Assembly (NCBI RefSeq): GCF_964204645.1
Contig: NC_134036.1
Location: 10,395,859 to 10,459,858 of the forward strand
Origin: Tubulanus polymorphus
Lineage: Eukaryota; Animalia; Nemertea
Direction of reading: 5' to 3'
DNA length: 64,000 nucleotides
This document shows positions 34,001-60,879 of this stretch, one piece after another (position 1 is the first letter of the stretch; each line of letters opens with the position of its first letter). The notes beneath the pieces were generated by a model. It was not told where the DNA came from and did no database searches. It was given only the letters and a program-made list of their open reading frames with translations. The position numbers and the translations under genes are program-made.

Positions 34001-34002
34001 TA

Positions 34003-34414: not shown

Positions 34415-34504
34415 TACTATATCAGATTAATCGACTTCAAAATAGGCGAAAGCATAAGTCTTTATTACGTTATTAATTGGCCTAATTATTCAAAAGCTAA
34501 TAAT

Positions 34505-36405: not shown

Positions 36406-36622
36406 TTTTTTAGTTTTGTCGTTTTGTCATAATGTTGCCCTCATTTGCCTATACGTGTTTTTTTACGCATGGCCCTTATCAGCCACCATACTAAAGCCTT
36501 AAGGTCGCGTAAAACTCGATAAACACTTCAAGCGACACAGCGAACGATCTCCTTTCCCCCACAGCGAACGCTTAACCTAGTAGAGGCTACTAGCCTATGT
36601 AGGCCTATGTATATGCGTAGGC

Positions 36623-37300
36623 CTAACATCCGGACAGATTGGTCGTAGGCCCATTGAATTCAACAACCCACCTAAATATCGTAAATTTTGTTTTGAAGTT
36701 CAATCCAATGAGTCCGTTAATAAACGCAACAATTGTACTGTGTTTGTTTGAGACAGTTAAGCTCAGTACCGGTAGGCCTAAAGCCGCGTCAAACTCGATA
36801 AACACTTCAAGCAACACAGCGAACGATCCCTTTCCCCCACAGAGAACGCTTACTCCGAATGTCAAGTGTGAGTCCAGCATACGGAAAGGATTATGTGTTA
36901 TATACTTGTATTTAGTGAATACCTTGTGCATTTGACAATGATCGGTATGTACGGTAGGAAATATAGAGTATTGATGGTATTGATATAGAGGTTGAAGCCC
37001 GCGGCCGAATAAAGTAATATATTCTTTTATTTTGATACCTCGTCGACATAAAAGCTTTTCTCCGCTATATCTCTTCGGCGTGTTTAGTTTAGGCCAACGA
37101 TTCCTCGGTACACTAAAGATTTATCTTAGTAAATACTCGGTTAATTCGGTAAAGAAAAATAGGTATTGTTATACTAACTCCTTGAAACCCGCAGCCAAAT
37201 TACTGGTAGTAATAAATTAATTTGTACTCGATTTGATTCTCATGATGAGGAGAAACTCGCAGCTGATCCCCGGAACGACGATGTAGTAACACACGTCGAT
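36623..37300 (-). pseudogene. Degenerate ORF of unknown function (possibly displaced Polinton accessory gene)
   Basis: The frame of ORF 36623-36931 extends upstream to ~37300 through two stops; part is duplicated at ~36490-36575. Confidence 0.3.
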
Positions 37301-37730
37301 TCGTCGATGTTTACGGCTCGACAGTGCTTTTAAAATCTAAAGTAGTAAATTTCCAGTGTATCGGTAATATGATTTGATGAGGAAAATGGGCTATTGTTAA
37401 AATCACTGTTTGAAGACCGCGACTGAATTTGAAGTCTGCGGCAATAAATTAGTTCATTTATACTTGAATTGATAATCGAAGTGACAGTCGGCCTGCGGGT
37501 TGATTTCGGGATGACGACTCGAAAAACATGTCGCCCCATTGAATGGGGCTAAATTTTCGATGTTTACGGCCCGACAGCGCTTTTGTAACGATGATTCGTG
37601 AAAAAACACGCGGGCTATTTGTAGATCTCAGTGAGCTGAACGATATTATATGGATTGTATATGAAACAGCGGTAAGGTAACAAAGCCTATGTTCTTTTGG
37701 TAAAAATAGTGTGGAAGAAAATAATAATAA

Positions 37731-37930
37731 TAAATATAGCTGCAAAGCAGCGATAACGGGTTTTCTGCACAGTCTTAGAATCCAGTTCAACGGTGGATTT
37801 CGACAAAGCATTTGATAAGGCACAACATCAGGCATTACTAACCAGGCTATTAGGAAACATCATTAATGATAGGTCACTCAAATGGCTCAGCAGTTATCTC
37901 TGAACGAAAACTTGTAGCCGAAATCAACGT
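37731..37930 (+). repeat. Short repeat with LINE RT fragment, copy 2; abuts the truncated pPolB
   Basis: Direct repeat of 33838-34000, continuing as SSYLSERK (RT-like). Confidence 0.7.
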
Positions 37931-40548
37931 GTTGAGTTTCATCGGTAGAAAATTGAATGTGTCCAAAAACTATATATCCAAATGTGTGACGGTCATAGTC
38001 ATTATTTTCCCGCCGTTTGGTACAATATCTGGTAATATACCTTGTGACACCAAATATTGAAGAATAAAGTAACCGTCAAAGGATTGAAAAAGGCGCGAAA
38101 ACAATGGCGCCCCTATTCTCTTCCGTAAACAACCACTCGCAGAATTCAGAGTCCGTTTTAAACATGTGTTCATGTTTACCGCAATAATCGCAAACCGAGT
38201 CAGGGGTCCGTTTCGACCATTTACACATTTGACATATTCTATGCGCTATACCCAATACTACAACGTGGTTCGATTCCACAGTCGTTGTTTCGAAATCGAA
38301 TGCGATGAACTTTCTATATTTTAGCTCATCGCCAGCCTTGTGGGCATCCAAATACGGGTTAATTAGTGTATGAGGGTTACCCTGTTCCTCAGAAACCACG
38401 TGATCCTGACTTTTGGCGACCCCGATGTAGCAAAGATGGCCGCTAGGCTTTCGCTCTTTACAAGAACTGCAATATTTCTGCCCGCAGTCGTGAGATTTAG
38501 GATCAAGTTTCTTTCTAGATACAATAGACCCGCATTGAAAACATCTCGTTCTCGAATCGCATACGCTTACCCCGTCTGCTCTTGGTCTGCAGTGTCTGGC
38601 TAAACACGCTTCCGATTTAAAATAGATATTGCATTTTATACACAAATAATTTCCCCGTTGTTCTACGCAATCCCCAAAGCAAAGTCTACATTTATCGGTA
38701 CAGCGATGTCGTTCTGTATTCGTATCCCCCTTTTTACAAATGTAGCAATAGTATGAACGACAGGTAGATGAAGCCATCGATGTAATTACATCGAAATGTC
38801 CATCCGTATATAATAATATAAGCTTTTTGGTATTCACACCGTGGTCGTCCAGCACATTGCGATTGTTTTCGTATAAAATGTGATAAGCGATATCATCACC
38901 AGTTACAACAAGTAAGCAGTAATCGGATAATTGTTTCGCAAACGCATCCAATTCGCGCAATCCACACTTGCCTAGGGGCACACCGGCATTCATGTGTAAG
39001 GTAATTGCCGCACCCTTTTGTAATGACCGGTTGCATTTACGAATAACGTCATAACGAGGGTCATTATCCGCACGCGCTTTCGCCACCACTAACGACCTAG
39101 CGAGACACAAATCATCGTCATTATCGATCGAAACAATACATGGTTTGTTTTGTCTAAACGACTCGAAATTTACCTCAACGCGTTTACGATGCGTACCACC
39201 TAGCGGCATTCGAATGAATGTACAATGGAAAATCCAAAGACAAATCCTCATTCGACTGTAGAACACAGATTATTCTATCGAGTATATATTCTACCGTTAG
39301 TTCGTCCAACGGTACGAATGGAAATTCAATGTTTCCATTGAGTTCTGCGTGCTCGATAGATATCCGGATCATGTCATTCGAACGAGCGTCCAACATTTCA
39401 CTTATAGCCGCTAAAACGTCGGTTAGATAGTTCCAGACGGTGGCTTGTGCATCCCGCGCGTCGAGTTGGTCGTTAATCGGGTCCTCATGTGGTATCACGG
39501 TAACCTTGTACAACTCATTTTTCATGTTGAATTTCTTACTGTGTTGTACGCCGTTCTGTAAAATAATGGAAATATTCTTTTTTATTCATTTTGTTCGTCA
39601 TTATGTTAAACGATTTTGATGTATTCGATTACTTACCCTGACCAATTTAATATTGCCCCGTATTATCTCGTCGGGGTTTTCACAGTGAGGGCGCTTCGAA
39701 CACGATACTTCTTCCTCATCATCAATATCGTCAATAGGACGCTTCGATGTTGGGGGCCGTGGCGCGCATACCTCGCTGTGGTTTCTTAACTCGGCGATTG
39801 ATGGGAACGATTCCGAACATCGCGAGCATGTAAACTCCCGTACGGCTGGTGGCGGTGGCGGTGGTGGCTGTGGTAAGACCGATGTCTTTTTAGGCTTACA
39901 TGTTCTCATATGCCTCACCAAGCTATCTTCACGGGATAGCGTTTTTCCGCATTTGTCGCAAGAATGCTATAAAATAGAAAAAAATACCCGGATTATATTT
40001 AAGATGACTAACGGGTTTTAGTAACGCATAATATCACTACTTACAGGTTTAGCATCCGATATGCCAGGTTGCGCGTGTAGTGATACGTGTTTGGCAACGT
40101 ATCCCTTGCACGTTTTGGCGTGTCGCCTCACGTGGTCTTTGCGTGCAAACACCTTGCCACTTGTGACGCATTGACAATCAGAAGTCCCAAAATGGGAACC
40201 CATGTGTCGCGTCAGCGTTTGCTGGTTATCAAAGTTAAGACCGCATATTTTGCAGTCCCATATTTGCTGAAAATAAAAAATAGGTATTTAATAATACGTT
40301 CAACCACATAGTAATTAAATGAACGGTTTTAATCTACTAACCGGATTGACCGAAGCTACAGACGCCTGTTGCTGCATCGGATGGGGTGCCATACAAATGA
40401 CCGTGTGCTGCGTCAAATCGCGCGCACAAGCAAATGCTTTGCAACAGCTTAAGCATTTAAACCCCTTCTTCCCAGCGTGAAGTTGCTGGTGTTGACCCAA
40501 TGCGATTTCATTGGCAAAAGTCAACGGGCAGTATTGGCATGAATACAT
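37925..40548 (-). pseudogene. polB: Protein-primed DNA polymerase B, 5' half, with three spliced upstream exons encoding six C2H2 fingers
   Basis: Exons 40548-40342, 40266-40045, 39966-39637 and 39555 onward joined by phase-0 GT-AG introns. OTU-like DDDLCLARS...GHFDVI, Cys-rich fingers, ExoI FIAFDFETT, ExoII-like FQSFDGYFIL, FLDTFNFLPMKL. Frameshifts; polymerase domain missing. Confidence 0.9.
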
Positions 40549-40624
40549 TTTCTGTAAGAAAAAAAAGATTGAATACGTGTTATTTTTTTAAAAGAGACTA
40601 ATCTTCAGTGTCTACAAGTCAATT

Positions 40625-41253: not shown

Positions 41254-41880
41254 ATGGCAGAGTATTATGGCCCGAGATACTTATCCCACCCATTAACAAT
41301 GATAGTCGCGGGACCGACGGGTTCCGGTAAAAGTGTGTTTGTCAAAAAAAGTTATAACGGAGAATCTTGTCGAAAAAAATCCCGATAAGATATATTGGTG
41401 TTACGCGGAGGCACAACCCGAAATGTTCAATGAATTGGAAAAGTTTGGAGTGCAGTTTGTAGAGGGTTTTTCTGGAGAACTCTACGACAAAATAGATGGC
41501 AGTAAACGTACATTAATTATAGTCGACGATCTGATGAATGAAGTAGGGAGTAATAACGCGTTAGCTTCTTTGTACACACGAGGATCCCATCATCGCAACA
41601 TCAGCGTTATTACGATTGTACAAAATATTTTCCCGAAAGGCAAAGAGTTTAGAACGATTAGTTTAAACTCACATTATATTGCCGTTTTTAAAAACGCGCG
41701 AGATAGAAATCAAGTTCGCGTTCTCGCTCAACAAGCCGGTTTGAAAAACGAAATAAAAGCGGCCTTTAGAGACGCGACCATGGAACCCCACGGTTATCTT
41801 TTACTGGATTTTAAACCGAAAACTGATGATAGATGGGCTTGAGAACTAGAATTTTTCCTAGCGATAAATACCATATAATA
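41254..41880 (+). pseudogene. Polinton A32-like packaging ATPase (frameshift after Walker A)
   Basis: MIVAGPTGSGK (41254 frame), Walker B LIIVDDLM, GSHHRNISV, RTISLNSHYI, KNARD. Confidence 0.93.
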
Positions 41881-42995: not shown

Positions 42996-43185
42996 CGACT
43001 AGATAACCTAATCACGACTGTCAAAAATCTTTGACCAATGACCGGGCTTCATTCGTGGCGTATTGATATGATATATGCGGGCTTCATTATTCGTGTTTGG
43101 GCATGTCAACGGTCAGCGGGTTTTGCAATTATATCATTAGTGGAATGGATATAGCAGTTTCATTTGTGGTCGAGCAGGCACGTTA

Positions 43186-43658
43186 ATGATGATCGCGATT
43201 GTAAACGTTGTATCTACGGCGCATTTGAATTGCCGTTTAAACCTAACCGATATTGCGAGAAAATTATGTAATGTCGTTTATGACCCCCGAAAGTTTAGCG
43301 GATTGATGTGGAAACATAGAAGTATACAAGGTAGCTAGCTGTCTATTGTTCGTAAATGGAAATTCGCCAGTTGATACAAAGGATGGGATACACGGGGAAC
43401 TTGAATAACTTCAAAATACAAACTATGACTGGAGTCGCAAAAATCGGTCGACGCGTAGACCTAGTGGAACTTTCCAAAACAGTTGACGGCGATTATAATC
43501 CTGAAATATTTCCCGGTTTTGTGTACAAATGTGAAAACGGAATAAAATTTATAGTACATAACGGTGGTACTTTAATATTGTCGGGTGCCAAAAAACTCAA
43601 CGATTTACAGGACGCCTACGAAGAAATTCTATTTTATGCCATTCTTTGTTCCAAATAA
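43186..43658 (+). pseudogene. TATA-binding-protein (TBP)-like protein carried by the Polinton
   Basis: Repeat 1 IVNVVSTAHLNCRLNLTDIARKLCNVVYDPRKFSGL; repeat 2 FKIQTMTG..VDLVEL..YNPEIFPGFVYK..FIVHNGGTLILSGAK. A 4-bp duplication (agct, ~43333) and a small deletion disrupt repeat 1. Confidence 0.85.
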
Positions 43659-43923: not shown

Positions 43924-44904
43924 AAAAGAAAAAAGAAATATCTCTTTACGGGATATACGAGACTGGTTGACCGACCAAGAAGTTTACACTTTACACGCCA
44001 AAGTACGAAAAGATTTCCAAGAAACAAAACTATAGCCTATCGAGTAAACGAACAATTTCAGGTCGACTTGTGCGACGTTTCGAATATTTCGAAACACAAT
44101 GACGGTTACAAATTTCTATTGACGGCTATTGATGTATTGTCTAGATACGCGTTCGCTATACCGTTAGAGAATAAATTTAATTCTACCGTTGTGGATGGAT
44201 TTAAAAAGGTTTTCAAAATTAGAAAACCTAACGTAATCCAATCGGAATCTGGCACAGAGTTTATCGGATCAAAAACGCAGACGTATCTGAGAAATGAAGG
44301 CGTACGTTTTTTCCAAAGTAAAAACGAAGTAAAATGCGCTTTAATCGAAAGATGGATACGTACTTTAAAATCGAAAATGTATAAGATATTTTCGCATAGA
44401 AATTCATACAGGTACATCGATCTACTTAAAGATATAGTAGCGTCGTACAACAAATCGTTTCATCGTAGTATAAAAATGACTCCAAATGATGTTAACGAGT
44501 TAAACGCGTACGAAGTTTTCAAGAATCTATACGGCACAAGTAGTAAAAAACGCGTACAATTTAAGTTTCGCGTTGGCGACACTGTTCGAGTAAGCGAACT
44601 CAAAGGTCAATTCCAAAAAGGCTATTTACCCGGTTGGAGTACTGAGTTGTTTGTCGTTACGAAAATAATTATGCGTGAGCCACCTATATACAAGATTAAA
44701 GATTTACAAGACGTAACAATAGATGGCGTGTTTTATGGTTACGAGTTGATAAAATTCAATAAAAAGGATGAAACGTATAAGATCGAGTCGATAATTAAAA
44801 CTCGAGGTAAAGGCGCTCGAAAACAATACTCGGTAAAGTGGTATAACTATCCCGATAAATTCAATTCTTGGGTGAACGCTCGAGATATCAAGACATTACC
44901 ATGA
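43826..44904 (+). pseudogene. Polinton rve (c-)integrase with C-terminal chromodomain, frameshift near 44030
   Basis: WLTDQEVYTLH, QVDLCD, IDVLSRYA, SESGTEF, ERWIRTLK, YNKSFHRSIKMTP, FRVGDTVR, KGYLPGWSTELF; chromo YKIESII..YSVKWYNYPDKFNSWV. Confidence 0.95.
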
Positions 44905-45706
44905 GTCAGGATTTTTACGTGTATCTCAAAAGCGATGCTAGCGTAGACATTTATCCCGATAATACGCAACATAGTTTTAAAGTTCGATTACGAACACCGA
45001 TTTCACTTCAAGGCAAATGAACTTTATGGCAGATTTCAATAACGTGAACAATGGTAGATTTCAATGTACGTCGTCTGAGCAAGGAACTCATTATCTCAAT
45101 ATACCCGAAGGTCGTTATTTGACAATTACCCAATTAATTGTTGCTATACAAACAGAGTTAAACAAATGGTAGGATAATAAGATAGTTCTTGCATTCAATG
45201 AACTAAGTCATAAAGTTTGTATCCGATTTTATGACAACTGCACAATAACTTTTACGAGTGATATTGCGTGGATTTTGGGTTTTAAAGAAAATATACCGAT
45301 TAACGAAGATATAACAGATCATCGTCAAGGCTCTAAAATACATGGTCCTATACTGTCAGATTCATCCGATAGTAAAACAGTTTACAAACACATCGAGGTT
45401 ACTGCAACCCGCAGTTCGGATATAAACGTCGATTATCATAATTTAATGATATATACAGATGTTATCGAACCTCAGCTGGTCGGACATGAAATCGCAAAAC
45501 TCTTGCGCATGATTGATTTGAATCCGAGAAATTTTGGTAAAATTGTTGGTCGAGAATTTACCAAGTTACAATACTTCCCACTACAGAGACGGAATTTCCA
45601 AACTATAGAAGTCTTTATAAGAACTGAATCCGGGAGAATCCCCGTGTTCAGAAAAGGAAAAGTTAACTTAGCTTTACATTTTAAAAAGAAGAATTTATTG
45701 CTATGA
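44901..45706 (+). pseudogene. Minor capsid (penton, PX) protein, disrupted
   Basis: MSQDFYVYLKSDASVDIYPDNTQHSFKVRL at the start; IYTDVIEPQLVG..LLRMI..YFPLQRRNFQTIEV..LHF at the end; internal stops and frameshifts. Confidence 0.88.
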
Positions 45707-46113
45707 GGGCTCTCTGCGAAATCGATCGGGATGCTTGTAAATATTACATGAACCAATGCGGTTCGGGTATTGATGTATATACGGCGTCTCCCGTACAAGG
45801 CGGTGCAGGCTTTGCATCAGTCTTGGGAGGGCTGGCTCGACCAGCTATTCCACTACTAAAAAATATGGCTAAGCAAGCGGTTCATCATTTACTGAGAACG
45901 GGTCTACACGTAGCTAGCGATGTGGTAGGCGGAAAGAATATCGCGACAGCCCTCAAAGATCGTGGCATCGAAACAATGGGTCGCATTATCAGACGAAGCT
46001 TAAAAAGACCATCTACCTCAACCCCAAAATCAATAAAAGGTCGTAAACGACGTAGGCGTATAACAACCGGAAAACGTGTACGAAAAACCAAAGCAACCGC
46101 TGAAGCGTACTAA
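45703..46113 (+). CDS. Polinton core/virion protein (QxGxG motifs, amphipathic helix, Arg-rich tail)
   Basis: YYMNQCGSG..VQGGAGFASVLGGLARPAIPLLK..RKRRRR; lies between penton and MCP. Confidence 0.8.
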   Translation: MRALCEIDRDACKYYMNQCGSGIDVYTASPVQGGAGFASVLGGLARPAIPLLKNMAKQAVHHLLRTGLHVASDVVGGKNIATALKDRGIETMGRIIRRSLKRPSTSTPKSIKGRKRRRRITTGKRVRKTKATAEAY

Positions 46114-46115
46114 TT

Positions 46116-47416
46116 ATGTCGTTATTAGTACATAAGGATTCGCCATTTTGCGTCAAGTCTGAACTCGATCTGTTTACAGTTCCCGGAACACAGATAAATT
46201 TCAAGCGTATGAGCGTATGAGCCTACTACATCGATTAACGATATGGGACCGATTGTATTCAGAGTACCGAAAACTGAACAATATTTAGATTTAAACGTCA
46301 CGTATTTAAAACTACAGTTTAAAATAGTTAACGCCGATGGAACTAATGTGGGTCCTGAAAAGTCTGTCTCAATGATCAATGGCGCCTATAGTCTATTTAG
46401 CGATGTACAAATTATGCTTAATGACCGAGTAGTTACCCACGACGGTGGATTATACCCGTTCAAGTGTGAACCTGAAAATATGGTTAATTACAACTCGGAA
46501 ACTAAAAACAACAGCTGGCTACAATGCGATCTTTATGCCGAAGACGAAGCCGGAAAAAAGTCAAATATCGATCCTACTTTACCAAACGCGAATTCTGGTT
46601 TGGTCAGAAGGAATAACTACACTAAAGGCAGTAAAATGGTTTGCGCTTATTCTCGCTTGTAAAGCGATGTAATGAGAATGAATAAGATTTTCTTCAACAA
46701 TACAGATTTACAAATAAAACTAACTCGATCAAAGGAAAGTTTTGCTCTAGTTTCCCCCGCCGAAAACCGATTTTCGTATAAAGATTGAAAGCGCTCAACT
46801 ATACATTCGTAAACTAGAACTGGATAGTTCTGTTTTAGTAGCGCATGCTAAAGCAATGGAAAAGAATACAGCAAAATATTATTTTTCGAGAACTGAATTA
46901 TTATCGTTGTATATTCCAAGAGGTCATAGAACAATTATCAAGGACTCCGTTTTCGTCGGCGAGATACCAAAGGCTATTGTTTTAGCTTTAGTGGACGACG
47001 ACGCGTTGAGCGGTAATTACAAAAAGAATCCGTTCAATTTCAAGGATTATTCATTGAATTATATAGGGGTGACCATTGATAATGTCCATGCACAAAACTC
47101 GCCGTTAATTATAGACTCTCGTGGCGACGGTTGCGAAGTGTATCACGGTTTATATTTAGCCCGGGGCTTATTGTATAAAAACGAAGGAATTGGGATAAAA
47201 CGTGAGGATTTCAAAAATGGTAATTTTATTTGTGGATTCAATATATCGCCAGAGTATGGGGATCAAACGCATCTGTCACTAATTAAAAAGGGGTCAATAA
47301 AAATCGAAATGCGATTTGATGAAGCTTTACCGCATAACGTGAATTTGATTGTTTACGCCGTTTTCGACGAATTACTACAAGTCACTAAAGAACGTCATAT
47401 AGAGATCGATTATTAA
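46116..47416 (+). pseudogene. Major capsid protein (double jelly roll, PY), frameshifted
   Basis: MSLLVHKDSPFCVKSELDLFTVPGTQ, GPIVF, YLDL, SLFSDVQI, GEIPKAIV, GNYKKNPFNFKDY; split over several ORFs. Confidence 0.93.
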
Positions 47417-47421
47417 CGACC

Positions 47422-47886
47422 ATGTTGTACACAAACCAAATTTTAGAGTTTATGAAAAAAGACGAATGTCTGAAAGCGTTTTTCGTTGGTGTGTTCCCAT
47501 GTGACGGACTACCGAATATAACGCGTTATCCAGCTGGTTTTATAGTAAACACTGATAATCACGATGAGCCCGGCGAACACTGGTTAGCTGTATATATAAA
47601 CGAATACGGATTTGGTTATTTTTTTGATTCCTTCGGACAATTACCCCGAACTTATGATATAATGTTAGAAAAATACTTGGATGAAAATTGTATAGACTGG
47701 AAATATAATAGTAAGATGTATCAAAATGTATTATCCGATGTATGTGGTTATTACGCTATATTTGTACTATTACACCTATGTCACGGTAACGATGTACGCG
47801 ATATTACGAAACTATTGTCAAACAAAACTACTGATAATGATTATTTTGTAAAAAAATTCATCGTGAAATATTTTAAGCTTCTATAA
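47422..47886 (+). CDS. Adenain-like cysteine maturation protease (intact)
   Basis: NTDNHDEPGEHW, YFFDSFG, YQNVLSDVCGYY (His-Asp-Gln-Cys set). Confidence 0.93.
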   Translation: MLYTNQILEFMKKDECLKAFFVGVFPCDGLPNITRYPAGFIVNTDNHDEPGEHWLAVYINEYGFGYFFDSFGQLPRTYDIMLEKYLDENCIDWKYNSKMYQNVLSDVCGYYAIFVLLHLCHGNDVRDITKLLSNKTTDNDYFVKKFIVKYFKLL

Positions 47887-48062: not shown

Positions 48063-48456
48063 TCAGTGTCCGAGTTCGTCGTCGTCGTATTCTTCGGCAG
48101 TGTTGTCATCAACATCATCGACGTTGCTGCTGCTGTTGTTGCCGTCTCTGGTGACGGCGGCGCCGGTTTCGTCGCATTCTCTGTTCTTCTTTGCGTATAT
48201 GCCCCGCAAACATACGTGCCCAGCGCACAACATTTCTGCAGAGTGGGCACAAAAATACATCATTAGCGTCTTCACGCCCCAGTTCAAGGTTTCTTCGTAT
48301 TATGGTGGAGACGCAGCTTCCACACGTCAAGTTTCTGTATTGACACTGGCTACATAGTAGCCAGCACCGCTGACCGGACGTGAAGCATATGCCGCACTCG
48401 AGCACTGCATCGGCATCATCCGGTATCTCAAACCAACGTGCTCCAATCACAGACAT
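48063..48456 (-). CDS. RING-finger-like protein (possible E3 ligase), acidic tail probably via frameshift
   Basis: CGIC-x10-CSQC-x6-CGSC-x21-CPLCR; overlapping frame ends in DVDDNTAEEYDDDE. Confidence 0.6.
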
Positions 48457-49306
48457 GTTGGAAATGATTTGTCCTAAAACTACCCCCTTATTTATGGGTC
48501 TAAGTCAGACGACTAATTAGTTGATTAATTCTTATAGTCTAACAGTTTACTCAAAGTATTTGAGGATTCTATCACATATTATTAACGGTGTTTTTGATAC
48601 TCTGGTCTATTATCACCCAGCATATAAGACCATCTGTTCGGTTTTATCTAAACAACTTAATTACCTCAGCGCTATGAGCACTAAAATGTTCGAATTATTG
48701 CTAGTGTAATTGGTTTGAAACCTCACACCTATTTTCCCATCGCGGACGTGTCTCCGATCTAAATCACTTAATTGCCTTCGTCTTCCACATATAATTAACG
48801 GTGTTTGGATACTATCGACCCATATGCTTCTGGTAATTGGTTTTGCTCACACCTATTTTCCCCAATCGTGGTCGTGTATTGATCTAAATCAATTAATTGC
48901 CTTCTTTGTCGGTATATCGTATCATGGGTCTGGATAGCAACGAAATGCTAGATTAACGTATTGTTAAATCAGAATGATTCAAAAATGAAATCTTTTATTC
49001 AATTAATGTTTTATTTAGTCCTAAAAACATAAATATTTTTATAAATATTGTAGATAAACATAGGTCATATACCTATACACGAAAAAACCATAAATTTCAT
49101 AAAAGATAGAAACTCACTACTTTAGTTAATCCTCTTTGGTTAGAGCGGATCTTAATGAAGTCCTGGATTAGTCATTTCGGATACTTATTTCTATCTAAGA
49201 GTTTAACGCAAACTAACGTATATAAATTGATGTATTTTTTTTACACATTTTGTTGTTCGGTTATGATATAAATATTATCTAATTAATATCTTTTAAACTA
49301 CTTTAA

Positions 49307-50130
49307 TTATACTTGGGTGATCATTACACCGTATTCAGGTGTTTTTCGTACTCCAGAAGTGTCTTTTGCGCAGTACGGACACCTGTATTCCTGATTCGAG
49401 TGACTGGAATCATACCAACAGGGCGTCATGTTGGCTAGTTCGGGTATATCGTCATTGAAATTAATGTCTTTCAATTTTTTCCATTGTTCCAATGTTAGTT
49501 TCCGCATCTAGTCGGAGAAACAGTGAGAGGTTCATCGAATAGATCGTATTTTCGGATATCTACGTAAATACGATGATCGTGACTAGACCTATATATTTTG
49601 ATAAAGTTCGTACGACCAACAGTCATTACACCCACGTATTCGATATCTTCTTTAACGCGCGCAATTTCGTGTTCGATATCGGCTTTACAATAATCTATAT
49701 GCACCCACTCTTGGAGATCGAGCGAAATACCGTTTTTAGTGGGATACAGTTGTTTTCTTCGTTCACAACACTCGTACGACCGTAAATCTACACGTTTTAC
49801 CCCCTGCCACGTTTTCGCACTCGCGTAAACAAGAGATCCTAGATAATGGGGTTCGGGGTCATTGTTCCAGGTGTTACGCAAGTTCGCACTTTTCGACGGG
49901 CCGGCGACAGCGTTGTCATTAACGATCGAACCTAAAAGAACAATAAAATATCATATATCAGTATACGTATGTCTTAATATTTGACGGTTTCGAATACGGG
50001 AAATAAGTAGAAACTTACTAAAGTCGAGTTTCAGCGAGGGGTGTTTTCTTTTTCTAGATTGAAGCGATGACTTTGCTTTAACTGGTGTATTAGATATTTC
50101 TAAAATACTTTGTCCGCTGGCCGAATCCAT
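49307..50130 (-). pseudogene. Tandem PC4/Sub1 (transcriptional coactivator, ssDNA-binding) domain protein, 2 exons, one frameshift
   Basis: Exon 50130-50019, phase-1 intron, exon from 49931. LGSLVYASAKTWQGVKRVDLRSY..YPTKNGISLDLQEW and second repeat IYVDIRKY..SPTRCG/KLTLEQWKKL match PC4 (IDIREY..PGRKGISL..EQW). Confidence 0.85.
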
Positions 50131-50533
50131 TATTACGATGATGTTGTATGATGTTGACGGTTCAAAGTCTCTGAGCAGAATGACTAAATTATGGATTTGC
50201 AACGCGTTTTTATTGTCAGAAATGACTTGCCCGAACTCGTTTTATGGTTTTACGTGTTGTTACGAAATATGTTCGCCTAAACTTGTCTATGATTTCACAA
50301 TAGCCGTCAAAAGAAGCCATCTTGGATTTTACCCCGCTCCCCTCTCTATACACGCTCTCGCATAGGATTATGTAATCATGGCGTCATCTAGGATGACGTC
50401 ACTCGCTTACACACGTACACACAAACGCACGCATGCGCACGCATCTGTATAGGATTACGGACTAGCGCCATCTAGGATTCAACTGCGCACTCGCTTTGTT
50501 TACACTCGCATAAACGAGACGTGATTTACGAAA

Positions 50534-51073
50534 ATGTCTGGCGATTTTTTTACCGTGGAAAACATTTTCCTAACAAAATCAACTACCACGGAACATGAAA
50601 TAAATCATGTCGACTTTGAAGATATCGACTGGTCTACCGGATTTGCGATTTGCAAATATTGTAATACGACAATTACATACGGTAGTTTTCGAGTAACGAC
50701 GTGTTGCAGGAAACCGATTTGTGAAGATTGCTGGCTAGTGAACGCTCGATGGTTAGGCGTTCAACATGATTTCGAATGTCCTATCGAGAATTGCATGGTA
50801 CATTTTAGGATTATCAAACATATCGCGAAAAAAGACTGTTATCGTTGTCACGCGCAAGAGGATTTGCTTCATTGTTGTGATAAAACTATATGCCGGCCCT
50901 GTTTAAGCGAACTTAAAACGTATGAAGGGTATGAAGAAAACTTTTGTTATTACTGCATAACTTTATTTTGTGGCATCAACACGTGTTTAGTGTGTTTGGA
51001 AATAACTAAACAAAAGACAGACTGCTGCGACGCTTATATTCACGTCTCGTGCGCCAAGGAATTCGGATTTTAA
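50534..51073 (+). CDS. Cys-rich protein with three RING-like repeats
   Basis: CKYC..CCRKPICEDC..CPIENC; CYRC..CCDKTICRPC..CYYC; CLVC..CCDAYIHVSC. Confidence 0.6.
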   Translation: MSGDFFTVENIFLTKSTTTEHEINHVDFEDIDWSTGFAICKYCNTTITYGSFRVTTCCRKPICEDCWLVNARWLGVQHDFECPIENCMVHFRIIKHIAKKDCYRCHAQEDLLHCCDKTICRPCLSELKTYEGYEENFCYYCITLFCGINTCLVCLEITKQKTDCCDAYIHVSCAKEFGF

Positions 51074-51439
51074 CCGTGTTTAAACTGTAAATTTTAACGG
51101 TGAATAAAATGTTTTTTTATTGTTTTACATTGTTTTTTTAATTTTTGGTTTTCTTTGTCTCGAATTTGCCCGTACTCAGGGAAAAGCGCCATCTAGGATT
51201 TAACTTCACTTCCCCCTCACCTCCACGTACACATAGGATCTCGTAATAGGATTCAACTTTTCCCATAAACACGCATAGGAATGCGTAAGCGCCATCTAGG
51301 ATTCAATCATACCAATAAATAAATTTGGATTTAAAACCGCCAATAAATTGATTTGGATTTGTTGTCAATAATTTGATTTGGATTTAACGGAAAATTTAGA
51401 ATTTTCCCGCCAAAAATTTGAAATTTGAATTTTAACCGC

Positions 51440-51522
51440 CACTTCCGGCCGCCATCTTGGATGACGTCACTACCGGCCGCCATCTTGGATGACGTCACTT
51501 CCGGCCGCCATCTTGGATGACG
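51440..51522. promoter_or_regulatory. Subterminal 28-bp triplicated motif (ETS + YY1 + CRE sites)
   Basis: acttccggccgccatcttggatgacgtc x3: CCGGAAGT and AAGATGGCGG on the minus strand, plus TGACGTCA. Confidence 0.7.
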
Positions 51523-52228
51523 ATTTGACAATTTGTTGCCACCCTCGTTATTTTATTATACAGTTGCAGGGATACTGGTACCCCCATCATTGGTCTCATC
51601 CATTATCAATCGTGAAAAGCCCCTGTGCATAAACCGTGATAAACAAGTTTGGAATAACATTCACATAGTTTAGTTATGATATTGTCAAACGTTTCTTACC
51701 GGCAAATTAGAATCTCATTTAGAATCTATCACATAGATAGATCAAGTAATCGGTTTTTTGAAAACCACGTTTATCGTGTGATTCTTTCGTCATCTTTGAT
51801 AGGAATAGTCGCACATATCTGACCATGAATCGATCGGTTTTTTTCAAGAAAATGACTATAATATGTGAATAACAGTTAAAAACGAGAGATGATGTAAATC
51901 AGGGAAGACAAATTGATTTGAGAAAATTTGTAAGGCGATTGATGTTTCTTGTCGCTAATGGAACGGCGCATCCTATTGATCACTTAACAATCCTCATTTA
52001 CCCTCGAAAGATAAACAATCATTTGTTTATTTGCTCACAGATGTATTGAATGTTAATATAACACACGATTTTACGTCTAAATATTTACATTCTAAAAATT
52101 TACATTCAATTCGAGCTTTTTAGCGAACGCGATCTAGTCAGTCAGTTACCTGACTGTGGTTCAGTTTCATAATCGGATTTCCCAAACCATCACAAGTATA
52201 TCCCATTAGAATCTCTTATCGCCAACGA

Positions 52229-52726
52229 TTACGAACAAGTTCCGATGGTACAATTGCCAGTGCAACAATCAGTATCACCCGTACAAACTACGCCTCGTAT
52301 CTTGCAACCTATATTTCGTAAAAAAGAGTATGCAATCAAACACGGAATTTCGAGGTAAGGCAATTTTTCATTTACATTGTAGGTATAATTGAACCCCCAC
52401 TCCCGGATGTATGACAAACAAATCAATACATGAGTTTAGGAAATACATTTACGTATGAAACATATTACACGTCAATGAAGTAGATTTTTGTCAGAATATA
52501 ATTATTGATATGTAATATTATCTTCGAAATGTAATTCGTCAAATTACTTCGTTAAATCTATAAACAGCTGCTGAATGTTTACTGAAAAGTGTAATTTCAA
52601 TTCATTGAATCATATGAAATTATGTATTATGTTCCAGGTCGTTCGTTACTCACTTTCTGCAAATGACGCGTCGCTGATCACTATCACAACGATAGCAGAT
52701 ACACGAGTCATTAAATAAGCAAGCAT
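52229..52726 (-). CDS. Secreted knottin (ICK) toxin-like peptide B, 50 aa, 2 exons (52726-52654, 52308-52229)
   Basis: MLAYLMTRVSAIVVIVISDASFAE-SCKIRGVVCTGDTDCCTGNCTIGTCS*; same phase-1 intron as A. Confidence 0.9.
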
Positions 52727-54179
52727 TTTCGATGCCTAGAATTTCAATTAAATATATTAGCATTGTGGGCAATCCCAAATTCTGATTATTCAACAGTTTT
52801 CAAAAGGCTATCATCAAATAAACCTGTTTTCAGAAAATTTACTAGTTTAGAATGATGAGGCTTGAGAAAAAAACAGTGCCTTTAGATCTCGCGCGTGCTG
52901 GGCTTTATATGTGATATACAAAGTCGGTAGCGTACCACAGGTCTACGGGTCCACTTGTCCGATGGACCACTAGTCCGGAGGTTCACTAGAACACATTTGT
53001 TGGTACACTAGGCCGGGGCCTAATAATGTGACAGGGATAATATTTACTATTGGTCTGTCAGTGGTCATGCGTGAACTGTGGTCAGTTAAACCATTACATG
53101 TCCAGTGCTACCGGTATTCGACGTTTGACAACTCATATAGAAACGTTTCTGCTATCAATGGAAGCATGGTTCAACACACAACAGACATACCTTTCAGTCG
53201 CGTTGTGCGCAGCAGTAACAGTAACTGAGTGCAGCCGTAGTGATAAAACTCCTTTAAGAATTGGCACAAACTGGCTATTTAAGATACAGCCACCAAACTT
53301 GTATCATATAAAAGCCACTTGTCTTTTCCGTTAAAAACTGTTTTCATTGGTGTTCTATCCTAATCATCCTTATATAAGCTGTCAAGCTTGTAAAAACCAG
53401 CTGCCCAAATGCACTTTTTCCTCCGATACATAGTAAAATGGCTCTGACTTGAAAAGTTTATAAGCAGAAAGCAGCGCCATTATTTTCATTATCAATTGAA
53501 GTTAAGTATCCAACGAAAGCAGACAACCTGGGGAACATTAATTATATTTTTGCGAGGATTTAACAATGAATAAAGGTAGTGAAGTCGATTTAGGTGCAAA
53601 ACACGGCAAATTTCACAATGGAGAATAGCGCGTTACAACATCGTAGCAGTAACGTTTCCATATGCAGTTGACCGAAAACGGGTTGTGATCGTTGGAGATT
53701 CATTTGGGCACACTGCCTTAGCAATGGTCATTAGTAACTTACCGACCACTGAACAGCTAGTCATGCCGCTAAAAACTTTCCAGGACAGAGGCCACTTCTC
53801 AGCCCTTTCAACACACCAGTGACCAAAAGTTAGCACAGTGACCACCCAGTTTAGAGAGAAATAAAAACGTTTTTTTTTTCTCCTACTCGTCATAATTTCT
53901 TCAATCGATGTACGTAACAATATTCTATAGTTTTTTGTTCTCTTCATTTCACATTACCTGTGCCTAGCTGCAAACCATAGCGAGAAAATGTGATTACGTC
54001 GAGAAGAAACACAGTATCCGTGTATGATGAATTACGAGAGAAATAAAATAAATTCAGCCAAAAATAAACATTTCTATGTAATAAAATCCAGGCATACTGA
54101 TACATATTACTTACTACATATTCCTAAACGATATGCCACGTCGATGAACAATTATATCACCCAGTTGCCATCACGGCGC

Positions 54180-57203: not shown

Positions 57204-58541
57204 TTTACGTACCAATACATCAGGGAAAATATTGAAATGGCATTTAAAAGTAAATTTCCAATAATTTATGAAATTTGAATATAATAATTGCCTGTGACAC
57301 TGAACAAGTTTATACTTTGCCTAAGTAAAGTGGCGATGCGCGTAGATCGATTCAAGTGCCAGGTGCGTATTGATAGAAATTGAAAAAGACCTCGATATCA
57401 GTTCCAATCAACATCATGCTGTGCAATCATTGCTATAATTTCAATTTCTATCTCAAACGTATATATTATCGCAAGCAATACGTTTTATTCATTCATCGAC
57501 AAGGTCTGACTCGAGAAAACGAGACATTTTCATTTCGAAAGTTGAATACTTCGGAAGAAGCGACCAAGGTAAGTGATGAGAAATGATGAGAGATGATGAA
57601 ATCTATATTATTCGCAATTAAACGTTTATTTTGGCACCTTTTTGAATACTTGGAACACGCCTTCCAGAATTCTTTTTTCAAACTCGAAATTTGCAAAAAG
57701 TTTTCATCTTCATTTCTCCCATCAAATCGATCATTATTTTCATTATTTTCACCCACTTTATCGTTTTCTGTAGTTTTCTGCCAAATAAAAACATTTCAAT
57801 TGTTTTTCTTATTCCTATCCATTGTGAAACGCCTGTAATAAATTCTTTTTAATTTTATTTCCTTTGACCTGCTATTTTCTTTCTTGAAAAAAACCGTTTT
57901 CCAAGTTATTAGAAAAAGCCTGTGTATGGATAAACAATCGAACATGATTTCATCATGGCTTTCTGGTGAACCGTCGAATAAGCACTTTTATTGAAACTGA
58001 GAAAACATGAGTTTTCAGCGAACGCGCGTCTAAACTTGGAGTAATCATTTGACAATGATTACTGCAAGGTCTAAAGTAGTGGTAGCGCTAACTTTGCCTA
58101 TAACGCCTGTCTTTGTAGCCTAAACGATAAGCGGGATGAAATGGAAATATCGTTACCCGACAATTCAAATCTATACAGCTCAATACGCTTTGCTTTATCG
58201 AAACCTGCATTACACTTTTTCATTTTGATGACTGTGATCAATGATTATTTGTGTGTAAAACTTTGACAAGAAAAATGATGAAGAAAATCTAAATCTTTTG
58301 GGGGAGGGGGAGGGAGTTGCAGTCATCTACGGTTTAATCGATGCTATACGGTCTGGACCTTTCATTTGGATATGCAACGTAGTTTTGGGCTTCATCGAAC
58401 TTCATTCGGGTTGCAAGAACGATTCTGAGAAATGGTTAATCGATGAGAGCCAATTGAAAGCTATTGAATGACCAGACTATGGGATTTCCTAAAATGCCAA
58501 TTTGCTCATATAATCAATTCAAATTCTAGGCAAATTTGAAA

Positions 58542-58846
58542 ATGCTCGCTTATCTAATAAGTCGCGTATGTGCTGCTGTTGTGATAGTGGTCAGTGTCGC
58601 GTCATTTGCAGAAGGTGAGTGACGACTGGGAAAATTAATTACACAATTTGATGAATGGTCCTTTAAAGATAATATTGCGTAGGGGTTAGATTTTTCAACA
58701 ATTTGAATAAGATATCAATTTACTTCAAAACTCCTTTTTTGATTGCATAATGTTTTTGAAATATAGGTTGCCAATTAAAAGCCGGAATGTGTGGCCATGA
58801 TGGTGAGTGTTGCAGTGGCAACTGTAAAGGCTTATCTTGTTGCTAA
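58542..58846 (+). CDS. Secreted knottin (ICK) toxin-like peptide C, 50 aa, 2 exons (58542-58614, 58767-58846)
   Basis: MLAYLISRVCAAVVIVVSVASFAE-GCQLKAGMCGHDGECCSGNCKGLSCC*; same intron phase; AATAAA at ~59007. Confidence 0.9.
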
Positions 58847-60879
58847 TCGTCGGTAATAAGGCTTTATATTCGGATATACTTGTGGTGATTTGGGAAATAT
58901 TCGATTACGAAACTGAACCGCTGTCAGGTAACTGACTATGAAATAGCTCGAATACGATTTCTATTTGTCACTATATCGTGAAATCTCGTGTTAATGATTA
59001 TATTCAATAAAACTGCGAGTAGAAAAATCGACGATCGGGTTGTTTTACTGTTTATGCTTTCAATGAGCACAAAAGGAGTTCGGAAATATATCCCCAATGA
59101 ATCGACCCTTCTCCATAGCCCCACATGATGCGTATAATGCAACGAATTTCGCCCAAGCAAAAAAGCGGATGAAATCCAGTTGAAAAATGTTGGATTGTTT
59201 TAATTTGGCGAAATTCTTCATGGAGTGGACGACAATAACAAAGGTTCTAAAAGAACGACTTGTGACTCTAATGACGTGCTATAATTAATGAACATTTTGC
59301 TAACTGAAACCTACAATAGGCTGTTTGAAGTGTCATTTGCTATTTTCGTTACCCTTTTAACAGTAGGGATAATGAAATGATAATCAGTAATCAATTGGTC
59401 ATATTCCATATTGGTCGTATTCTTAATGGAATATGACCAAAAACCGATATTTGTAGAAACTAATTGCCGCTTCGCAACAATATTCCAATATTCTGACATG
59501 TGAATTGTGTTTGGAGATTTTTTTAGAAAACTTTTTCTAAGATGTGTGCCAAGTATTTTTCTGTAACAGCCCGTTGAATTCCTGTACAATAACACGTCAC
59601 CCGTTTTTATATCTAATGTTAGAGCCACGCGTATGATGGTATTCATTTGCATTTCATTTGCCATGCGTACTCAGCCCGAAAGGTTAACCTTTAGCAATTA
59701 ATAAGCCATATGTGCGAGTGAATGTAAGGCACATCTTGAGTTATGCATCCTCAGCGGAAGGCCCCGTAACCCGCCTCCCGCCAAAAAGAAATACAAAAAA
59801 ATTACATTCATACTAAAGATGTGTGTTCTCAAGGCAACCTACTTGGAAATGTCTGAACCAACTCAGTGATAATATATTTCAATCTTAAGACTATTTTACT
59901 TTTAGCATTACCAATTCAGCCTATAATAGTATATATCAATTCAGCCTATATTTCTTTTTTTTTCATTGAACACACAATCATTCACATTGAATCAATGTAA
60001 GACCCAATATTCTTCAGCCAAAAGAGTTAATGCAGTCGTCAATCGCAACTCTAAAGTAACATAGATTAAAATTGACTCGATTTTATCAGTCAATAAATCC
60101 AATTTCACAATCTTGAGGGTTTGAAGCTGCACCCAGTTCAACAAATATATGATTTCTATAAAGGACCCAGTTTTACAGTAATTTTGTTCCACGTGTCCCT
60201 GAATCAAGTTTTACAGTCTTGTTTGCTTTGACTTGTTATCCAGTTCCACCGTTTAGTCAGTTTCATCCGCCTATAATCACGGTCATTAGGGACTAATTTG
60301 ACTTTGCATCCAGTCTCATACATATTAGGTCTATTTGACATGACAAGTTTGAAAACGTTAATTAGTTTAATAATATCGAATCCTGAATTTTAGGAAAAAA
60401 TATAGCTGCAAAGCAGCGATAACGGGTTTTCTGGATGCATGTGATCGAAAGGAAAAATTAATTACCGGGTATTCGATGGAAAAAATAAAATGAGATGATT
60501 TGGATATTATCGGAGCAATCCTCTTTTTGGTTGAATGGTCTAACCCCAGTATAGTCCCCGTGATTTGGAAATTCTCGGAGCCCTCCTTCATTTACTTACT
60601 AAATGACGTCACAAACTGTTATTTCGCCGGTGCTTGTTGTCTAACAATTCAATTCAATTCTTTATTTACAGTAACCTAATAAGTAATTTTAAGTTTCAAA
60701 TAGGATGGAAAGTACATTCAGACAATCTGTTGGTTCAGAGAGACCGTTATTACAGTATCAATTTATACATTTCGTTTCGAAGCTGTCAGTTGCCGAATCT
60801 GAATGCAGATGAATTTTATTTGACGAGATCGGCGGAAAATATATAATAATAATAATAATCAACAGAATTTCAAGAGTGT

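Follow-up and report, generated by a model that had tools for sequence, protein, structure and literature searches.

Tandem PC4 repeats in a protein family carried by a decayed ribbon-worm Polinton, a candidate single-stranded-DNA-binding protein

Human PC4 (SUB1) and fungal Sub1 share a C-terminal domain that binds single-stranded (ss) DNA (Pfam PF02229; PDB 1pcf, 2c62, 4usg, 6ycs and 4bhm), and are homodimers of single-domain chains. We take the ssDNA contacts of PC4 to be Phe77, Arg86, Trp89 and Arg100/Lys101, a numbering that agrees with the 4usg W89Y alignment. The coactivator function of cellular PC4 needs an N-terminal region that is Ser/acidic and Lys-rich. According to a review of PC4-like domains (PMC7549692), PC4 binds both ssDNA and melted DNA, and the PUR I-II repeats of Pur-alpha and other 'type I' PC4-like domains (Whirly, MRP1/2) have a beta4-alpha-linker-beta4-alpha arrangement, in which one chain forms one domain. 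Several PF02229 repeats per chain are also found in DEK_C proteins such as P0003 from protists and algae, which are presumably cellular and have an N-terminal DEK_C domain followed by four PC4 repeats. A virus-encoded homologue is the PC4-like protein of bacteriophage T5 (PDB 4bg7), which is implicated in recombination-dependent replication and not in transcription.

Polintons (Mavericks) are thought to replicate in the manner of adenovirus, with a protein-primed polymerase. Protein-primed replicons encode their own ssDNA-binding protein (SSB), and we know of no protein to which this function has been assigned in Polintons or Mavericks. A full-text literature search found no mention of a PC4-type gene in Polintons, Mavericks, adintoviruses, virophages or Polinton-like viruses. 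Here we describe such a gene in the ribbon worm Tubulanus polymorphus, in a 64,000-nucleotide stretch of contig NC_134036.1 (referred to as the window), and compare its product with these systems.

Open reading frame and translation analysis of the window identified a single copy of a two-exon gene with a PC4-type product on the minus strand (50130..49307), with its start codon at 50130-50128 and its stop codon at 49309-49307. Exon 1 (50019..50130; 37 codons and one base) encodes a Ser-rich N-terminus with a basic cluster, and is separated by an 87-nt intron (49932..50018, GTAAGT...TTTTAG) from exon 2 (49307..49931, including the stop codon), which occupies two frames owing to a break. The GT-AG intron had been proposed in an earlier note made from the sequence alone, and it is skipped exactly in one 1000-nt contig of run X4, which joins 49929 to 50017 and omits 87 nt (CT..AC ends on the plus strand with the cut shifted by +2). 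None of the four matching runs is listed as RNA and their kind is not stated, so this contig could derive either from RNA or from a DNA copy lacking the intron, and does not by itself prove expression. Intact copies at 98% identity are listed in RefSeq as "uncharacterized" T. polymorphus proteins, and two of these (P0001 and P0065; 246 aa, 98% identical) have the same exon junction as the window gene. The basic cluster, R-K-R-K at residues 26-29 (50044..50055, minus strand), is NLS-like as the same note had suggested, and is predicted to direct nuclear import. It is retained in T. polymorphus paralogues of 88% and 65% identity and, more widely, a basic cluster occurs in 13 of the 25 family members whose N-terminus is at least 30 aa long (13 of all 36).

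The break lies at 49495..49510 (minus strand), within the conserved P-T-x-x-G turn of the second PC4 repeat, where the window copy differs slightly in length by a number of bases that three does not divide. Here the contigs of other copies have a few extra bases and P0001 reads through, whereas in the window copy frame A ends at a stop codon (49497-49495) after the break. Contigs of run X1 show the same shorter form, which indicates a real variant rather than an assembly slip. The full-length protein cannot come from the window copy.

The reading of two PC4 repeats in one chain held up in profile searches. Repeat 1 (49648..49854, minus strand; residues 64-132 of the intact paralogue) is matched by PF02229 in the window's own exon 2 translation (33.5 bits, E 2.9e-08, cut-off 25), and its model fits 1pcf. 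Repeat 2 (49430..49638, minus strand; residues 136-206), which has the frameshift inside it, corresponds to the second of two PF02229 stretches in P0001 (51.8 bits) and has the expected strands and helix in the model. When the two halves of the interrupted repeat 2 were searched separately against Pfam, neither matched PC4. A phmmer search returned 64 matches, of which 62 were inspected, and 36 of these combine two PC4 repeats with a C-H-C-C tail; all 36 match PF02229. They come from nemertean and bivalve genomes and share one architecture, with a variable N-terminus, two PC4 repeats and a C-x5-H-x6-C-x2-C tail. By sequence, these proteins make up a previously undescribed, multicopy family, represented by several RefSeq loci, clusters with as many as 356 members and many variant contigs. 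The ESM Atlas gave leads only, to clusters of Mollusca, Arthropoda and Nematoda and to one labelled Viruses/Preplasmiviricota (score 0.85). Scans of IMG/VR with four queries (window exon 2, the family alignment A3, which is narrower than A1, P0035, and the protein of a second Polinton, L001, described below) found no relative. Longer fused forms of 516-2000 aa were sought and none was found, which is weak evidence.

The positions conserved in the family appear to be largely those that contact DNA in PC4. In the family alignment an Arg is aligned with Arg86 in 36 of 36 members in repeat 1 and in 36 of 36 in repeat 2, and the P-T-[KR]-[KR]-G turn is kept in both repeats. The Phe77 position is aromatic in repeat 1 in 34/36 members, while repeat 2 has R-x-[WYF] in all 36, followed by F or W in 31. 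The equivalent of Trp89 is aromatic in repeat 2 in 31/36 members and is lost in repeat 1 across the family. The Tubulanus protein has an acidic residue opposite Trp89 in each of its repeats, and Asn and Cys occupy two of its basic turn positions, so its affinity for DNA may be below that of the rest of the family.

The family profile matches the PC4 chain with 60 bits, and the predicted structures agree with this homology. In the models, repeat 1 forms a four-stranded curved sheet plus a helix and overlays the C-terminal domain of PC4 with an rmsd of 0.9-1.2 Å. The first AlphaFold model has a TM-score of 0.90 to 1pcf (normalised to target length; rmsd 1.2 Å over 66 aa). A second model, of the L001 protein (pLDDT 92.6), aligns with PC4 (6ycs) with an rmsd of 0.9 Å over 66 aa at 38% identity. 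Both repeats are packed within one chain in the models, in line with the single-chain pseudo-dimer that the earlier note had inferred, and are predicted to form one intramolecular PC4-like domain. The whole domain aligns with PUR I-II of Pur-alpha: residues 59-203 of the first model span both repeats (Z 11.5, rmsd 3.4 Å over 133 aa), the L001 model gives Z 10.6, and the two alignments cover 128-133 aa. The family would thus resemble Pur-alpha and the type I domains in arrangement. However, identity is only 9-11%, with no sequence relationship, and the family proteins match neither PUR nor Whirly Pfam models, so the likeness is architectural only; in this family, two genuine PF02229 repeats would make up the type I arrangement. 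If the models are correct, a true PF02229 domain has been turned from an intermolecular dimer into a single chain, and the family may represent an evolutionary intermediate linking the two classes of PC4-like domain.

Compared with PC4/Sub1, the family is predicted to have the same beta4-alpha unit and keeps the equivalents of Arg86, Phe77 and the Lys/Arg-Gly turn. Unlike PC4/Sub1, it has two repeats per chain, adds the C-H-C-C tail, lacks a conserved Ser/acidic and Lys-rich N-terminus, is multicopy and is carried on a virus-like transposon. Across the family, repeat 1 has also lost the equivalent of Trp89, and in the Tubulanus protein both repeats have lost it. The T5 protein is also related to the family (profile E 1.2e-04; fold Z 6.9-7.5, the upper value from the L001 model, rmsd 1.6-1.9 Å over 48 aa), but it has a single repeat, dimerises, lacks a Cys/His tail and belongs to a phage rather than a eukaryotic element. 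Single-chain arrays of PC4 domains are not unique to the family, given the DEK_C proteins, which differ in having four repeats and the DEK_C domain and in lacking the C-H-C-C tail.

This tail (49370..49420, minus strand) has the pattern C-x5-H-x6-C-x2-C and is predicted to bind zinc. Its residues Cys210, His216, Cys223 and Cys226 are conserved in 34, 36, 36 and 36 of the 36 members, respectively. In the L001 model all four ligand residues fall within residues 141-170, where pLDDT is 90-96, and the tail is likely to be a zinc knuckle.

The window element is a decayed Polinton, a virus-like transposon in the ribbon-worm genome. Its core block (43924..47883, plus strand), which is homologous to the corresponding block of L001, encodes an integrase with rve and chromo domains, a penton-like ORF, capsid-like ORFs and an adenain-like protease. 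The integrase matches rve with 32.0 bits (E 1.6e-07, cut-off 32.6) and Chromo with 30.4 bits, and shares 34% identity with the integrase of L001, in which the rve match reaches 51.7 bits; a retrovirus-like integrase is present in the element. The protease matches Peptidase_C5 with 21.1 bits (cut-off 21.3) and C48 with 21.1 bits (cut-off 20.7), an ATPase-like ORF has a weak match to Pox_A32 (14.8 bits), and the capsid-like ORFs were assigned by position and homology to L001 alone. A putative N-terminal remnant of a protein-primed DNA polymerase (38079..39585, minus strand) has an ExoI-like motif at 38300 and no Pfam match, and polymerase motifs A, B and C are absent from the whole window. No terminal inverted repeats (TIRs) enclosing the PC4 gene were found in 33000-53500 and no inverted pair of at least 20 nt links both ends, which we attribute to truncation of the element on the polymerase side. 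A pair of candidate TIRs at 19517-20197 and 52104-52841 (~75% identity) was rejected as copies of another repeat, which occurs a third time at 58.4 kb and has a core resembling an ATG...GTGAGT exon.

The PC4 gene is located at the opposite end of the element from the polymerase, ~10 kb away, in what is apparently an accessory region. A RING-like ORF lies downstream on the same strand (48118..48504, minus strand) and a Cys-rich, RING-like ORF is divergent from it (50525..51070, plus strand). A broken TBP gene, with two PF00352 repeats spread over three frames (43141..43655, plus strand), is 6 kb away on the opposite strand. A TBP gene in such an element has a precedent: midsize linear dsDNA viruses with adintovirus-like PolB carry TBP genes, their hosts being non-animal eukaryotes (Starrett et al. 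2021, PMC8502044, Fig. 5 legend). The term PC4 is absent from the text of PMC8502044 and from one of its supplements. The earlier note had placed the PC4 gene in a Polinton near TBP, C2H2 and RING-like ORFs, and this placement stands, as the neighbours were identified in the window and a second Polinton has the same gene.

That second element came from a metagenome scan, in which only two loci had the PC4 gene: L001, and L002, which at 1188 bp is too short to inform. In L001, an incomplete contig of 9.2 kb, the PC4 gene is beside integrase, capsid-like and protease genes. Identity between the window and L001 is 29% for PC4, 34% for integrase, 31% for the capsid-like protein and 30% for protease. 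All four are thus about 30% identical, and the PC4 gene has diverged about as far as the core genes, which indicates that Polintons have inherited it as one of their own genes. The two elements carry it at different positions, and in L001 it adjoins an accessory region with BIR, ankyrin and NADAR genes. No TBP homologue was found in the 9.2 kb of L001, which is weak evidence since the contig is incomplete.

These comparisons bear on whether the gene is simply a PC4 paralogue of the host that happens to neighbour Polinton remains, to which we give very little credence. Such an origin would account for the listing of intact copies as host genes in RefSeq, the spliceosomal intron and the lack of enclosing TIRs in the window. 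However, the gene belongs to a multicopy family with near-identical loci, its flanks (49100-50400) are likewise repeated in read contigs, other genes of the element also have short introns, and its homologue in L001 has diverged to a matching degree. In bivalve and nemertean assemblies, dozens of genes annotated as "uncharacterized" or "PC4 family" probably belong to Polintons rather than being host coactivators.

We propose, tentatively, that the tandem-PC4 protein could well be the replication SSB of the Polinton, serving protein-primed, strand-displacement synthesis. Both beta-sheets would form one curved surface and bind unpaired DNA without sequence preference, as PC4 does, and the C-H-C-C tail would hold a structural zinc ion, a feature of many viral SSBs. 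The protein would then coat the displaced strand and aid the polymerase, a role comparable to that of adenovirus DBP, phi29 p5 and the T5 PC4-like protein. Adenovirus DBP, which binds zinc, and phi29 p5 are proposed as functional analogues, as replicon-encoded SSBs for a protein-primed polymerase; their folds are unrelated to that of the family. The gene would be expressed from a promoter of the host-factor type, with CRE-like and YY1-like motifs, and not from a TBP-specific late promoter. The separation of the PC4 gene from the polymerase speaks against a replication SSB.

A transcription cofactor, working with the TBP of the element (possibly also with its C2H2 or RING proteins) to open or stabilise element promoters for host RNA polymerase II, is an unlikely alternative, although PF02229 membership, the TBP gene within the same element and the loose resemblance of the basic, Ser-rich N-terminal exon to the PC4 N-terminus are in its favour. 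The TBP, C2H2 and RING-like ORFs of the element are a point against the SSB, as a regulatory role fits them as well. The family N-terminus, however, is not conserved: it ranges from 2 to 134 aa, has a run of at least five Ser/Asp/Glu residues in only 2/36 members, and shows no conservation among the 36 members of the Ser/acidic and Lys-rich region of cellular PC4. This argument is weaker than the counts suggest, as short N-termini in metagenome gene calls may reflect missed first exons. Conservation is centred on the DNA-contact positions and the tail. The linkage of TBP and PC4 consists of their presence in the same element, on opposite strands, and L001 has the PC4 gene with no TBP in its 9.2 kb. 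The PC4 promoter region has CRE-like and YY1-like motifs, and no upstream box common to the element's genes was found by eye. To our knowledge, direct binding of PC4 to TBP is also no part of the cellular paradigm. The TBP-PC4 transcription module put forward in the earlier note, for which the sole evidence is the occurrence of both genes in one element, was accordingly not upheld, and an SSB for strand-displacement replication appears to fit better.

A CARD is present in family member P0011 (25.6 bits, cut-off 23.9), ahead of its two PC4 repeats and tail, and a partial CARD in P0034. Together with the BIR, ankyrin and NADAR genes that adjoin the PC4 gene in L001, this would suit a host-interaction or signalling protein, a nucleic-acid sensor or decoy that would bind single-stranded nucleic acid of virus or host and so tune innate immunity or apoptosis, with some copies captured by hosts. 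We consider this improbable for the family, since CARD exceeds the Pfam cut-off in only 1/36 members, the Tubulanus and L001 proteins have none, and the strongly conserved core is the DNA-binding domain. P0011 does point to signalling by some family members, and to that extent counts against the SSB. If the SSB assignment is true, CARD-fused relatives would represent an ssDNA-binding module rewired by hosts or viruses into death or inflammation signalling.

The protein is small and partly basic, with nucleic-acid binding expected from its sequence, and cellular PC4 also compacts chromatin; like the core proteins of adenovirus, it might condense or accompany the DNA of the element inside particles. 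Such a genome-packaging role seems highly improbable, as the PC4 gene is outside the morphogenesis block and on the opposite strand, it sits in different places in the two elements, and the protein as a whole is not strongly basic.

For Polintons, this conserved and multicopy PC4-type protein, borne by the element itself, is a concrete SSB candidate that lends itself readily to testing. The broader proposal, that adintovirus-type Polintons of animals, in nemerteans, in bivalves and perhaps in further phyla, encode an unrecognised replication SSB, a counterpart of adenovirus DBP in which a zinc knuckle locks a single-chain PC4 pseudo-dimer, is possible but more doubtful. If it is true, the PC4 protein would be the missing third component of Polinton protein-primed replication, beside the polymerase and the terminal protein.

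The DNA around the PC4 gene contains repeated GCCATCTWGGAT motifs, which have no minus-strand copy in the window and are not found in L001 or L002. Three of them lie on the plus strand at 50316..50478, in the intergenic stretch from which the PC4 gene and the Cys-rich ORF diverge, and one is followed by TGACGTCA; by sequence and location these are candidate promoter or enhancer elements. Five further GCCATCTWGGAT motifs are located at 51188..51518 (plus strand). The last three form a threefold tandem of a 28-nt unit, in which two are followed by TGACGTCA, and this stretch may be a subterminal repeat region of the element.

The tandem-PC4 gene is present as a single copy in the 64-kb window and lies on the minus strand, with exactly the extent given in the earlier note (49307..50130). 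The ATG is at 50130-50128 and the first exon, whose Ser-rich product includes an R-K-R-K cluster, has its 3' end at 50019. Between it and exon 2 lies an intron of 87 nt (50018-49932; ends GTAAGT and TTTTAG). Exon 2 runs from 49931 to a stop codon at 49309-49307. The reading frame changes near 49495-49510 within exon 2: frame A reaches a stop at 49497-49495 and the remaining protein is encoded in another frame. In the Pfam search proposed by the earlier note, PC4 repeat 1 from the window's own translation matched PF02229 with 33.5 bits (cut-off 25), and the separate halves of the window's repeat 2 gave no match.

A phmmer search with the window's exon 2 against 1.84 billion representatives returned 64 matches. 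The top match, P0001, is a 246 aa RefSeq "uncharacterized protein" from the nemertean Tubulanus polymorphus (98% identity), and its sister sequence P0065 represents additional loci. The frame of P0001 is open across the break, its exon junction is exactly the one predicted for the window gene, and it contains two PF02229 stretches (51.8 bits), which agrees with the proposal of two PC4-like repeats per chain. Paralogues at 88% and 65% identity retain both repeats and the tail along with the basic cluster. We mapped Logan contigs from four runs belonging to a single study (at most two samples; kind of run not known) to 49100-50400 and found many variants that are 90-99% alike, indicating that this stretch is multicopy. 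At the break site other copies have a few extra bases, in a number that is not a multiple of three, and contigs from one run (X1) carry the same shorter form as the window, so an assembly slip is not the cause of the break. In one contig precisely these 87 nt of intron are missing; given the unspecified kind of run, this contig may derive from RNA or from a DNA copy lacking the intron, and either would mark the stretch as an intron. The GT-AG intron after the NLS-like exon, first described from the sequence alone, is borne out by the P0001 junction and this contig.

The carrier of the gene is a decayed Polinton. It comprises an N-terminal polymerase remnant with an ExoI-like motif (38079-39585, minus strand), three C2H2-finger ORFs (39604-40587, minus strand), a weak A32-like ATPase (41306-41839), a TBP gene with two PF00352 repeats (43141-43655, plus strand), an rve+chromo integrase (43924-44901), ORFs of penton-like and capsid-like type, an adenain-like protease (47389-47883), a RING-like ORF (48118-48504, minus strand) and, beyond the PC4 gene, a Cys-rich ORF (50525-51070). 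Polymerase motifs A-C were found nowhere in the 64-kb window. Where the polymerase gene should continue there is instead a 416 bp palindrome (34001-34416) and a 31-bp satellite (approximately 59 units, 34507-36403), flanked on both sides by a 162-bp direct repeat (33839-34000 and 37730-37891, 99.4% identical); this block (33839-37891) occupies the position of the missing polymerase part. The TBP gene is spread across three reading frames and its repeat 1 is seemingly short by approximately 10 residues, so that it is broken in this copy, as the PC4 gene is. No TIR pair was found between 33000 and 53500. Repeats near 19.5k and 52.8k were rejected as Polinton TIRs, as they belong to a separate three-copy repeat (19517-20197, 52104-52841 and 58423-58937; approximately 75-80% identity). 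Its conserved core resembles a first exon (ATG, hydrophobic stretch, GTGAGT donor), and it may represent a family of host genes or some other repeat. The C2H2-finger ORFs and the polymerase N-terminus follow one another head to tail on the minus strand, separated by short gaps with GTAAGT...polyT-AG ends, and may be exons of one gene or adjacent spliced genes. Short introns seem to be present in several genes of the Polinton.

A metagenome scan identified a second Polinton with a tandem-PC4 gene, the 9195-bp contig L001. Its gene order is tandem-PC4; ankyrin-repeat, NADAR and BIR (IAP) genes in an accessory region reaching to the integrase (1607-4141); rve+chromo integrase; penton-like and capsid-like ORFs; and a protease-like ORF. 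Its PC4 gene is preceded, at approximately 360-720, by a GC-rich stretch and by a 15-nt repeat present in many copies. The L001 tandem-PC4 protein has 181 aa, two PF02229 stretches (84.4 bits) and a C-x5-H-x6-C-x2-C tail. Between L001 and the window it has diverged (29% identity, E 1e-22) as much as the integrase (34%, 2e-56), the capsid-like protein (31%, 2e-34) and the protease (30%, 2e-23), and this comparison of sequences argues that the PC4 gene was inherited together with the Polinton core genes rather than captured twice. That it is a plain host paralogue seems very improbable. The position and strand of the PC4 gene differ between the two elements, as would be expected for accessory regions, which flank the core modules of Mavericks (PMC8097293).

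To define the family, 62 of the 64 phmmer matches were read (P0026 and P0048 were left out), and 36 members with a variable N-terminus, two PC4 repeats and the C-terminal C-x5-H-x6-C-x2-C motif were chosen by eye for alignment A1. The 26 excluded matches were cellular-looking DEK_C + 4x PC4 proteins, tail-less tandem PC4 proteins and fragments. All 36 members match PF02229. Alignment columns are labelled by what we take to be human PC4 residue numbering (Arg86, Phe77, Trp89), which is consistent with alignments to PC4 and with the title of a W89Y entry. An Arg aligned with Arg86 and the Gly of the P-T-[KR]-[KR]-G turn are present in both repeats of all 36 members. Repeat 1 has an aromatic residue at the Phe77 position in 34/36, and repeat 2 has R-x-[WYF] in 36/36, followed by F or W in 31. 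The tail ligands Cys, His, Cys and Cys are found in 34, 36, 36 and 36 of the 36 members. The Tubulanus protein is a divergent member in which the Trp89 equivalent is acidic in both repeats. The N-terminus ahead of repeat 1 ranges from 2 to 134 residues; a basic cluster occurs in 13 of the 25 members with an N-terminus of at least 30 residues and a Ser/acidic run in only 2/36, and some short N-termini may reflect missed first exons. A search with a profile built from 11 closer members (A3) retrieved 55 proteins at E <= 1e-8, and all those with an organism name are bivalve (Tegillarca granosa, Pecten maximus, Mizuhopecten yessoensis, Ruditapes philippinarum and Mytilus edulis). Four family clusters on megabase contigs of public assemblies (P0088, P0081, P0089 and P0123) hold 356, 24, 28 and 33 member sequences at 90% identity, which suggests that some genomes, likely those of bivalves, carry the family in very many copies.

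AlphaFold2 modelling of P0001 with A1 gave a pLDDT of 78.5 overall and of more than 90 across residues 61-215; the model contains two units, each of four strands plus a helix. Against the PDB, Foldseek matched the model to the human PC4 C-terminal domain (TM 0.90, normalised to target length; rmsd 1.2 A, 66 aa), recovering the PC4 fold in an intact copy, and aligned approximately 150 columns to Pur-alpha repeats I-II. VIA-align matched residues 59-203 to PURA I-II (Z 11.5, rmsd 3.4 A, 133 aa) and the model to PC4 (Z 6.1, rmsd 1.2 A). An independent model of the L001 protein, built with alignment A5, reached a pLDDT of 92.6 (90-96 in the tail region) and a pTM of 0.86. In a wide structure search independent of Foldseek it aligned with Pur-alpha at Z 10.6 across 130 aa and with the PC4-like protein of phage T5 at Z 7.5, and 66 aa superposed on PC4 with an rmsd of 0.9 A (38% identity). 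The two models agree in predicting that the repeats pack into one intramolecular PC4-like domain, in keeping with the single-chain pseudo-dimer put forward previously. The predicted architecture is the "type I" arrangement described in the review by Janowski and Niessing (PMC7549692), in this case made from two true PF02229 repeats.

The positions conserved in this multicopy, element-borne protein correspond largely to the PC4 DNA-contact residues, to which the four Cys/His ligand positions add. Protein-primed replicons use an SSB, such as adenovirus DBP or phi29 p5, and among viral PC4 homologues the T5 PC4-like protein is linked to replication. Our favoured, though tentative, reading is that the tandem-PC4 protein would be the SSB of the Polinton's protein-primed replication. 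It would enter the nucleus through its basic cluster and bind unpaired DNA on the joint sheet of both repeats, while the tail would hold a structural zinc; it would thereby supply the SSB that protein-primed, strand-displacing replicons require. A core or packaging role appears far-fetched. Besides such an SSB, the earlier note had proposed a transcription module in which the protein is a TBP-linked coactivator; its observation of the gene is confirmed and its interpretation is supported in part. A tandem-PC4 gene and TBP do occur in one Polinton, and this co-occurrence together with PC4-family membership is the sole support for a coactivator; however, the N-terminus is not conserved across the family and L001, a partial element, has the PC4 gene but no TBP homologue, leaving this role unlikely. 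TBP is listed among the genes of related viruses of non-animal eukaryotes in PMC8502044. One public-assembly relative (P0011) has an N-terminal CARD (25.6 bits, cut-off 23.9) ahead of the tandem PC4 and Cys/His tail, which would suit a signalling or sensor protein, a role we consider quite improbable. P0034 has a partial CARD, and the search for longer, fused family forms found none, which is weak evidence.

As the proteins belong to PF02229, this is neither a new fold nor a new domain family. The predicted architecture, in which a single-chain tandem is joined to a Cys/His knuckle, is new, and so are its carrier, an animal Polinton, and the likely role. In the full-text literature, which excludes bioRxiv supplements and subscription journals, we found no paper linking PC4 with Polintons, Mavericks, adintoviruses, virophages or polinton-like viruses; in the lone text match to Polinton and PC4, "PC4" is a cluster label. 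The text and one supplement of the adintovirus paper (PMC8502044) contain no PC4 term. The tandem-PC4 protein offers a concrete candidate, open to testing, for the SSB that is missing from the picture of Polinton replication.

Upstream of the PC4 gene, around the Cys-rich ORF, region 50316-51518 contains eight GCCATCTWGGAT motifs, all on the plus strand, compared with 0.26 expected by chance. Three of the eight are followed by the CRE-like palindrome TGACGTCA, and three of the window's five TGACGTCA palindromes lie in this upstream region. The motifs resemble YY1 and ATF/CREB sites, and the region may be an early promoter, an enhancer or a subterminal repeat. No upstream box common to the PC4 and capsid genes was seen by eye. 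Together with the motif cluster, this would fit, weakly, with early, host-factor-driven expression of the PC4 gene.

Elsewhere in the window, 1-5400 and 30046-33035 are inverted LTR-retrotransposon-like copies (96-99% identical) that are unrelated to the Polinton and encode an aspartic protease and an integrase zinc-binding domain. A 758-aa open frame with a Cys/His-rich centre and no Pfam match (7030-9306, plus strand) is possibly the transposase of another element.
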